From positions 17,402-81,401 of the forward strand of contig JAJCYW010000005.1 of NCBI GenBank assembly GCA_029262675.1: a stretch of 64,000 bases of DNA. Direction: 5' to 3'. The position numbers were made by a program, and so were the translations under genes. The notes under the pieces are model-generated. The model had not been told where the DNA came from, did no database searches, and worked only from the letters and a program-made list of their open reading frames with translations. This document shows positions 32,499 to 33,272 of this stretch, piece after piece. This stretch comes from Chloroflexota bacterium. Its GTDB lineage: Bacteria > Chloroflexota > Dehalococcoidia > DSTF01 > RBG-16-68-14. Within the stretch, counting starts at the first letter, position 1. Every line of letters begins with the position of its first letter.

Positions 32499-33272
32499 CT
32501 ATGGAGATCGGCCGCGTCCGCGGAAGTAGACGAGTGTCCCCAAGACCGCAACAACCCCGAGGCCGGCGAGGACAAGCGCGATGATGAGGGACGTGTTGCT
32601 CGAACCGTTTGATGCTCCTCCGGAGTCCGGCAGGCCGGGGCTAGATGCATCCTCGGGGTTTGGCGATGCCGGTTCCCCAGGCTCGCCATCTCCACCAGAT
32701 CGGACGACCACCACTTCGCCATCTGTCTTGCTGGCAGCAAGCGTGTTCCCTTGAGGATCGATGATGGAAGATTCGGCGATGTCAATGATCGACGTTCCTT
32801 CCCCGACGGCCTCGAATGAGACGTTGACAAGCGCTTGGGGGCCGCTTGCGGTTGGTCCAGGTTCTGGAATCAGAGGGATGGTGAAGCAGAAGTGGGCGAG
32901 GATGCCAGTGTCGTTATCGATGCCGCTACTAGGGCATATCGCCTGGGCGCCGACGCTGTTTACGAAGCCGCTGTCAGTGATGGCGAGCCCGTTGATGACG
33001 GATGGATCATACGCCATCGCTAGGGTGTAACCCCCTAGCCCGTCCGGCGTAGTGACATTGCTGACCATGAGGCTCACCTCAAACGGGCCGGCACCCGGTT
33101 CCACGGTTTGACTGGCTGGATCGACAGAGAGGATTGGGCCGCCTTGAGCATCGATGGGTTCGTTAGTGATACCGGCTGCTAGAAAGACGATAGCCGCCAG
33201 CACGCCTGCTCCGAGCGCGGTTAGCATCGGTCGCCAGTGGGAACCAGGAAATGATCGAGGAATGGAACGCAC
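32499..33272 (-). CDS. Cohesin-domain protein with LPDSG + TM + basic tail (anchor scaffoldin candidate)
   Basis: Cohesin-like domain closely related to that of 28654-29667 (PDGLGGYTL.M.YDP.V); ends LPDSG-x10-LIIALVLAGLGVVAVLGTLVYF-RGRGRSP. Start estimated at GTG 33272. Confidence 0.8.
   Translation of the reverse strand: MRSIPRSFPGSHWRPMLTALGAGVLAAIVFLAAGITNEPIDAQGGPILSVDPASQTVEPGAGPFEVSLMVSNVTTPDGLGGYTLAMAYDPSVINGLAITDSGFVNSVGAQAICPSSGIDNDTGILAHFCFTIPLIPEPGPTASGPQALVNVSFEAVGEGTSIIDIAESSIIDPQGNTLAASKTDGEVVVVRSGGDGEPGEPASPNPEDASSPGLPDSGGASNGSSNTSLIIALVLAGLGVVAVLGTLVYFRGRGRSP

Follow-up and report, generated by a model that had tools for sequence, protein, structure and literature searches.

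Two proteins encoded in a 64,000-nt stretch of an uncultured Chloroflexota bacterium of the class Dehalococcoidia (assembly GCA_029262675.1, contig 5, positions 17402-81401; hereafter the window) end in an LPDSG motif followed by a spacer, a hydrophobic helix and a basic tail. Analysis of the whole genome (G000; 3.42 Mb, 21 contigs, 64.6% G+C) indicates that the tails of these proteins, here designated A and B, are probably functional cell-wall sorting signals, handled in a standard sortase pathway by the single class-F-like sortase of the genome. Because the genome encodes this enzyme as well as a predicted full peptidoglycan pathway, the tails would represent ordinary wall anchoring, with no puzzle of a missing wall. 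A preliminary description of this DNA, made from the window, had read the tails as sortase signals and had noted that cultured Dehalococcoides lack peptidoglycan, so that the acceptor was left open; the former reading is supported by the evidence given below, while a lack of peptidoglycan, as a premise, fails for this genome.

Tripartite tails of proteins A and B

Translation of the two open reading frames (ORFs) matches exactly the tails originally described, with LPDSG at the positions given in Table 1, spacers of 9-10 residues and helices of 19-22 residues (22 in A, 19 in B) closed by a positively charged extreme C-terminus. Protein A ends in ...ASSPG-LPDSG-GASNGSSNTS-LIIALVLAGLGVVAVLGTLVYF-RGRGRSP*, and a helix is found at residues 204-230 of the AlphaFold2 model of its 234-residue form. 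Its longest ORF codes for 278 residues, with the N-termini of homologues pointing to GTG 33272 or ATG 33227 (242 residues) as likelier starts. A Sec signal peptide is predicted at the N-terminus of A, where a hydrophobic region is closed by a conserved A-x-A-Q (with A19 and Q20 near-invariant among the 20 aligned homologues), and a predicted Sec signal was also assigned to B from the N-terminal hydrophobic segment read in its sequence. The G+C content at third codon positions (GC3), 0.83, marks the ORF of B as a coding frame, and its product shows, in order, an N-terminal signal or anchor, a cohesin-like head, a Thr/Pro stalk of ~225 residues and the sorting signal. As previously proposed, the tails are carried by otherwise different proteins, no cross-match being given by BLASTP between the globular parts of A and B.

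The two LPDSG copies are encoded by CTG CCG GAC TCC GGA and TTG CCG GAC AGC GGC, respectively, with unrelated flanks. Since the codons differ, the identity is one of peptide sequence and not of duplicated DNA; a recently copied DNA cassette as the origin of both tails was rejected for the same reason (TCC versus AGC for Ser) and for the difference in the flanks.

Homologues of protein A (22 at E<=1e-3 in a metagenome protein collection, 20 of which were aligned) share a well conserved cohesin core and a linker that is hypervariable in both length and sequence. Within this linker, LP-x-[S/A]-G is found at the same position in 15 of the 20, as LPDSG, LPEAG, LPESG, LPASG, LPKAG, LPSSG, LPTSG or LPAAG; L, P and G are invariant in these sequences and the neighbouring residues vary. 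One homologue carries a dockerin in place of the entire tail. A class-wide search with protein A returned only distant cohesin paralogues, mostly of the same order.

Genome-wide enrichment and consensus of candidate signals

Counts were made on a crude gene set of non-overlapping longest ORFs over the whole genome; as this set drops some real genes, such as murF and ftsW, the census figures are approximate. A hydrophobic helix followed by Arg/Lys terminates 178 proteins. LPx[TSA]G occurs within the 30 residues preceding such tails in 17 cases, against 0.51 expected from its proteome-wide rate (~33-fold; Poisson P 1.8e-20), and the looser LPxxG in 20 against 2.0 expected, shuffled segments giving a mean of 3.8 and a maximum of 11. 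This enrichment, the conservation among homologues and the presence of a sortase gene all support the interpretation of the tails as sortase-type sorting signals.

Hand curation of a six-frame census yielded 23 candidate substrates. Their consensus is L-P-[D9 S4 K3]-[A7 T7 S6 V2 D1]-G-[T11 G4]-[G14 A6], with 8-17 residues between the Gly and the helix, and it accommodates both protein A (LPDSGGA) and protein B (LPDSGTG). At position 3 Asp is found most often (9/23), and at position 4 Ser (6/23) belongs with Ala and Thr to the three common ones, so that it is not surprising in itself for both proteins to carry the very same pentapeptide. LPDSG is also borne by a third protein, small and cohesin-like, encoded on contig 7.

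A second C-terminal pattern was observed in four secreted proteins (Table 1): A-P-V-[GNV]-G is followed, after 15-25 residues, by a hydrophobic helix with a tail of RRR type. The resemblance may be due to chance, or the pattern may represent a further sorting motif. The protein on contig 20 has a sub-threshold match to the GVDTG_CTERM model.

A single class-F-like sortase outside the window

The observation that the window holds no sortase gene was confirmed, the sole match to the sortase family PF04203 in the genome lying on contig 10 (85.2 bits, positions 1-124 of 125), whereas no match to exosortase/archaeosortase (PF09721) was found in the genome at E<=0.01. The search proposed earlier has thus returned one sortase and no exosortase, and the case envisaged there of a genome with no sortase-like gene does not apply.

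The protein has 232 residues; a membrane helix is present at its N-terminus, and FSGH, TLITCGG and DDRVVVRA can be read as motifs. It is predicted to adopt the sortase fold with a His-Cys-Arg triad. Because phmmer against the PDB sequences found nothing at E<=0.01, the catalytic motifs were identified by reading the sequence and by BLASTP against Staphylococcus aureus SrtA. In the resulting alignment, which is a lead only, Cys and Arg fall on Cys184 and Arg197 and the His region is misplaced. Seven NCBIfam sortase models matched, the best being class F (NF033748) with 114.8 bits and class E scoring 39; as the former value is below the curated cut-off of 166, the enzyme is best designated as class-F-like and not as a certified member of class F.

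Orthologues with 56-74% identity are present in metagenome-assembled genomes (MAGs) of Chloroflexota and Dehalococcoidia. The gene lies 1.4 kb from a cluster of cohesin/dockerin proteins, one of which ends in LPDTG, and at the sortase locus of a distant Dehalococcoidia MAG (L007) the adjoining protein ends in VLPSSGTG, a helix and RK.

Peptidoglycan biosynthesis genes

A search for mur genes, also suggested by the preliminary description, retrieved a dcw cluster on contig 10, MurE on contig 18 and a second SEDS/penicillin-binding protein (PBP) pair, of RodA/PBP2 type, on contig 1. The check covered MurB-MurG, MraY, FtsW, Ddl and the PBPs. MurE, MurF, MraY, MurD, FtsW, MurC, MurB and Ddl score above the curated NCBIfam cut-offs, MurG falls just below (235 versus 250), and MurE passes the equivalog of diaminopimelic acid (DAP) type. 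The genes thus predict a complete peptidoglycan pathway, by which lipid II would be available as acceptor. This agrees with what is reported for the class, in which peptidoglycan has been demonstrated experimentally in Tepidiforma (Palmer et al. 2023, PMC10284905) and is ancestral, with losses only in Dehalococcoidales and in the orders of the marine radiation and retention in several orders (PMC10284905).

MurC and MurB are encoded as a fusion in an 822-codon frame (787 residues from the likely start), both halves of which are above the NCBIfam cut-offs.

Predicted cohesin heads and exchangeable C-termini

Protein A is predicted to carry a cohesin fold. Its AlphaFold2 model, built on the family alignment, has a core with a predicted local distance difference test score (pLDDT) of 86-95, and the top 50 Foldseek matches in the PDB are all cohesins (best E 1.6e-8, TM up to 0.78), including the sortase-anchored ScaE cohesin of Ruminococcus flavefaciens (2zf9). 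Sequence identity with known cohesins is only 11-19%; Pfam Cohesin (PF00963) matches 15 of the 20 family members, protein A itself being below Pfam detection. The head of protein B is tentatively cohesin-like, on the basis of a weak Pfam Cohesin match (E 0.014) and of a low-confidence model (pLDDT 56) whose top 12 Foldseek matches in the PDB are all cohesins (E ~1e-4). Apart from this weak match, the only hit obtained with full-length A and B in Pfam and NCBIfam was a spurious Psb35-like one on the helix.

Five homologues were detectable for protein B, having in common the head and the Thr/Pro stalk and ending in a dockerin or a flexitail-like module; none of the five bears the sorting signal. 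Among the homologues of both proteins (P0013, P0015, P0017, P0021, P0022 and P0019 for A; P0023-P0027 for B), the same cohesin heads were observed with swapped C-termini: some have an LPx[SA]G signal, others a helix and Arg tail alone, and others again a dockerin or a domain resembling the flexitail. Comparison of these sequences points to frequent swapping of the C-terminal "address" module among cohesin proteins.

Potential partners are numerous in the same genome, with 72 dockerin matches, 62 of them individually above cut-off. Over the C-terminal 60 residues of the whole proteome, the flexitail signatures (GPN.WNMT.PD and NDILG.I.HY) are the most over-represented motifs, with ~30-47 proteins versus ~23 sortase signals.

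Table 1. Positions of the features described in the text. Window features are numbered from the first nucleotide of the window.
Feature	Sequence	Positions	Strand	Basis or remark
Protein A, secreted single-cohesin anchor protein	Window	32499..33335	-	ORF list, homologues, signal peptide in alignment
Protein A, predicted cohesin domain (limits approximate)	Window	32700..33143	-	AlphaFold2, Foldseek, Pfam matches of the family
Protein A, LPDSG, predicted sortase recognition site	Window	32619..32633	-	Translation, homologue conservation, genome-wide enrichment
Protein A, spacer GASNGSSNTS	Window	32589-32618	-	Translation
Protein A, hydrophobic helix, 22 residues	Window	32523-32588	-	Translation
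Protein A, basic tail RGRGRSP	Window	32502-32522	-	Translation; stop 32499-32501
Protein B, 524-residue stalked anchor	Window	56432..58006	+	ORF list; GC3 0.83
Protein B, cohesin-like head (tentative)	Window	56603..57106	+	Weak Pfam match, low-confidence model
Protein B, LPDSG, predicted sortase recognition site	Window	57794..57808	+	Translation; fits genome consensus
Protein B, spacer TGDGPSSGY	Window	57809-57835	+	Translation
Protein B, hydrophobic helix, 19 residues	Window	57836-57892	+	Translation
Protein B, basic tail RSH...RRHPRLH, 37 residues	Window	57893-58003	+	Translation
Sortase	G000 contig 10	173155-173859	-	PF04203 match 173203-173622
dcw cluster: RsmH, class B PBP, MurF, MraY, MurD, FtsW, MurG, MurC-MurB, Ddl, FtsQ, FtsA, FtsZ (in order)	G000 contig 10	~230.5-247 kb		
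MurC-MurB fusion	G000 contig 10	240312-242780	+	Both halves above NCBIfam cut-offs
Third LPDSG protein, small, cohesin-like	G000 contig 7	47918-48649		
A-P-V-[GNV]-G protein	G000 contig 10	206861-207679		
A-P-V-[GNV]-G protein	G000 contig 20	182460-183152		Sub-threshold GVDTG_CTERM match
A-P-V-[GNV]-G protein	G000 contig 15	70313-71725		
A-P-V-[GNV]-G protein	G000 contig 10	276631-277495		
Small protein downstream of A, 137 residues	Window	31472-31885	-	Signal peptide
Small protein downstream of A, 141 residues	Window	31957-32382	-	Signal peptide
Protein with Cys-type C-terminal tail, 825 residues	G064 contig 1	317863-320340	+	MYXO-CTERM-like

Proposed anchoring pathway

The following pathway would account for these features. 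Proteins A and B would be exported by Sec through their N-terminal signal peptides; their C-terminal helix, together with the basic stop-transfer tail, would keep them in the membrane. The sortase Cys would then cut between Ser and Gly (LPDS/G), the position being the one expected of such enzymes, and form a thioester with the Ser carboxyl; resolution of the thioester by the stem-peptide amine of lipid II, the putative acceptor, would build the protein into the wall. The products would be wall-fixed cohesin sockets, short in the case of A and raised on the Thr/Pro stalk of ~225 residues in the case of B, into which those secreted proteins of this genome that bear a dockerin or flexitail may plug.

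Evidence against wall anchoring and alternative interpretations

Several points weigh against sortase-mediated attachment of A and B to peptidoglycan. The class F score of the enzyme is below the curated cut-off, as said, and the physiological roles of class F sortases are unknown (PMC13251363). Since the genome is ~92% complete, a second sortase is possible. In both LPDSG tails position 4 is Ser, the canonical residue being Thr, and the LPXTG_anchor model (TIGR01167) scores all ten tested tails under its 15.9-bit cut-off: A reaches 7.6 bits, B gives no match, and the eight sister tails gave 7.4-12.8 bits in five cases and no match in three. The 37-residue basic tail of protein B is atypically long for a sorting signal; long tails, of 20-30 residues, are also present on two other candidate substrates (C10:190026 and C17:77850), and the extension in B may stem from a lost stop codon or serve some function. 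Five of the 20 protein A homologues, more distant, have the helix and the Arg-rich tail without LPxxG. Finally, neither DAP nor Lys was detected in hydrolysates of the Tepidiforma wall (PMC10284905), so that the chemistry of the acceptor amine is unsettled in the class.

The last point bears on the possibility that A and B are indeed sortase substrates but are joined to an acceptor other than peptidoglycan, such as an S-layer protein, a glycolipid or another surface protein, including pilus-like end-to-end joining of cohesin proteins. We consider this unlikely. In a sample of 201 Dehalococcoidia genomes, sortase was found in 102 and SEDS (FtsW/RodA) in 89. Sortase is present in 82 and absent from 7 of the SEDS-positive genomes, and present in 20 and absent from 92 of the 112 SEDS-negative ones (Fisher P 4e-28); both are present in 12/12 genomes of the order to which the window belongs, its own included. 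Such a strong association of sortase with SEDS argues against a different acceptor, as does the whole peptidoglycan pathway of the present genome; no pilin-type motifs were seen in A and B.

On the other side stand the 20 genomes that retain a sortase and no SEDS (G004, G030, G035, G041, G064, G071, G084, G102, G113, G119, G130, G135, G141, G151, G161, G166, G176, G180, G190 and G194; loci L008-L014 and L015-L022), by which a sortase can persist in the class without peptidoglycan. They have one weak hit each to the Mur-ligase family (presumably FolC), versus six in the genome of the window, and should therefore be without peptidoglycan genes in general and not without SEDS alone. They span ten genera, many being closed genomes; a single genus of uncultured Dehalococcoidia, whose closed genomes measure ~2 Mb, accounts for 11 of them, and in it a membrane-anchored TlpA/ResA-like thioredoxin always precedes the sortase. 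His, Cys and Arg are intact in the sortases read from four of these lineages. That one sortase has to serve ~23 substrates can also be brought in favour of a different acceptor, as can the failure to detect a diamino acid in the wall of Tepidiforma (PMC10284905).

One of these relatives, G064 (closed, 1.897 Mb), was scanned over its whole genome. At its C-termini LPx[TSA]G shows no enrichment (8 versus 7.6 expected), none of its 127 helix-plus-basic tails bears an LPxxG-type motif, and an unbiased scan for enriched C-terminal motifs gave no alternative candidate for a sortase signal. Next to its sortase, the conserved genes code for a TlpA/ResA-like thioredoxin and for acyl-CoA-synthetase-like products, and not for substrates. 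In this one genome, therefore, canonical substrates and peptidoglycan genes are both missing, which supports peptidoglycan as the acceptor in the genome of the window. That Dehalococcoidia sortases are not strictly peptidoglycan-dependent, the ancestral enzyme having already used an S-layer protein, glycolipid or other surface protein to which the LPx[TSA]G cohesin anchors of this genome would be joined in place of the wall, is given a low probability by us; if true, it would be a new mode of sortase anchoring.

An 825-residue protein of G064 (Table 1) ends in ...SSGGC, a hydrophobic helix and RRRRR, a Cys-type tail similar to MYXO-CTERM.

It is also quite improbable that A and B are plain C-terminal membrane proteins, tethered by the helix and tail, with LPDSG as an unprocessed linker motif. 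The five distant homologues lacking LPxxG show that members of the protein A family can exist as simple membrane anchors, and the long cytoplasmic tail of B and the sub-cut-off LPXTG_anchor scores point in the same direction. An unprocessed linker, however, would hardly explain why LPx[TSA]G is so strongly enriched at exactly this position, why L, P and G stay invariant in the 15 motif-bearing homologues amid freely varying neighbours, and why the genome has a sortase gene. Moreover, since the two LPDSG copies use different codons, selection appears to act on the peptide.

A different C-terminal sorting system, either PEP-CTERM/VPDSG with exosortase or one of GVDTG-, GlyGly- or MYXO-CTERM type, is scarcely credible: LPDSG resembles the VPDSG variant of PEP-CTERM, and two sister tails reach 21 and 26 bits with GVDTG_CTERM (cut-off 29), but the genome has a sortase and no PF09721 gene, NCBIfam CTERM models do not match A and B even at E<=1-10, and GVDTG_CTERM has no match above cut-off anywhere in the genome. 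A literature search found no paper on the GVDTG sorting domain.

Small proteins with signal peptides next to protein A

Downstream of protein A, on the same strand, the window encodes two small proteins of 137 and 141 residues, both with signal peptides and a common GP[RK]F..C motif past the predicted cleavage site.

Comparison with known systems and implications

The closest known arrangement to that of protein A is ScaE of R. flavefaciens, likewise a secreted protein with one cohesin, a linker and an LPXTG-type signal, which fixes a cohesin-dockerin assembly to monoderm peptidoglycan. ScaE belongs to Bacillota and not to Chloroflexota, and the signals described here differ in having Ser or Ala at position 4 as often as Thr and a longer spacer. 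In function, the system of the window is thus a ScaE-type arrangement found in another phylum, with a divergent class-F-like sortase as its predicted enzyme.

As for the enzyme, only one class F sortase is reported to have been characterised biochemically, that of Cutibacterium (Propionibacterium) acnes (Di Girolamo et al. 2019, through PMC8225981 and PMC13251363), which reads LPXTG. The contig-10 sortase is similar to it in being a single, housekeeping-type, N-terminally anchored enzyme with a predicted LPXTG-like recognition; unlike it, it stays below the class F cut-off and its putative substrates have T, S and A in about equal numbers at position 4, and V twice. With S. aureus SrtA and the LPXTG signal modelled by TIGR01167 it shares the tripartite logic and the catalytic motifs, TLITC and the downstream Arg being alignable (again as a lead only), whereas the tails differ in their low or missing TIGR01167 scores, the spacer of 8-17 residues and the relaxed position 4. 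Relaxation of position 4, the preference for [TG][GA] following the Gly and the greater length of the spacer are variations in degree from the classical signal.

Tepidiforma has a monoderm envelope with peptidoglycan and S-layer and the ancestral DAP-type pathway (PMC10284905), the same gene set being found in the present genome; the paper contains no mention of sortases, and the organism studied here is uncultured.

For the window, the apparent paradox is removed, as the organism is predicted to have both the enzyme and the wall. The question of the acceptor raised by the preliminary description applies instead to those relatives that keep a sortase without peptidoglycan genes, one of which (G064) has no recognisable substrates. 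The consensus LPx[TSA]G[TG][GA], with a spacer of 8-17 residues, can be used as a working definition of the signal; because it is missed by the curated LPXTG model, annotation of Chloroflexota probably overlooks many proteins of this kind. The role of class F sortases could also be studied in a clean setting in a lineage such as this, where one class-F-like enzyme is matched to a defined set of substrates. In the biology of this organism, the ~23 proteins, at least three of them small LPDSG cohesin anchors, are likely to be wall-attached sockets, and would represent the fixed end of the cohesin-dockerin/flexitail surface system encoded by the genome.

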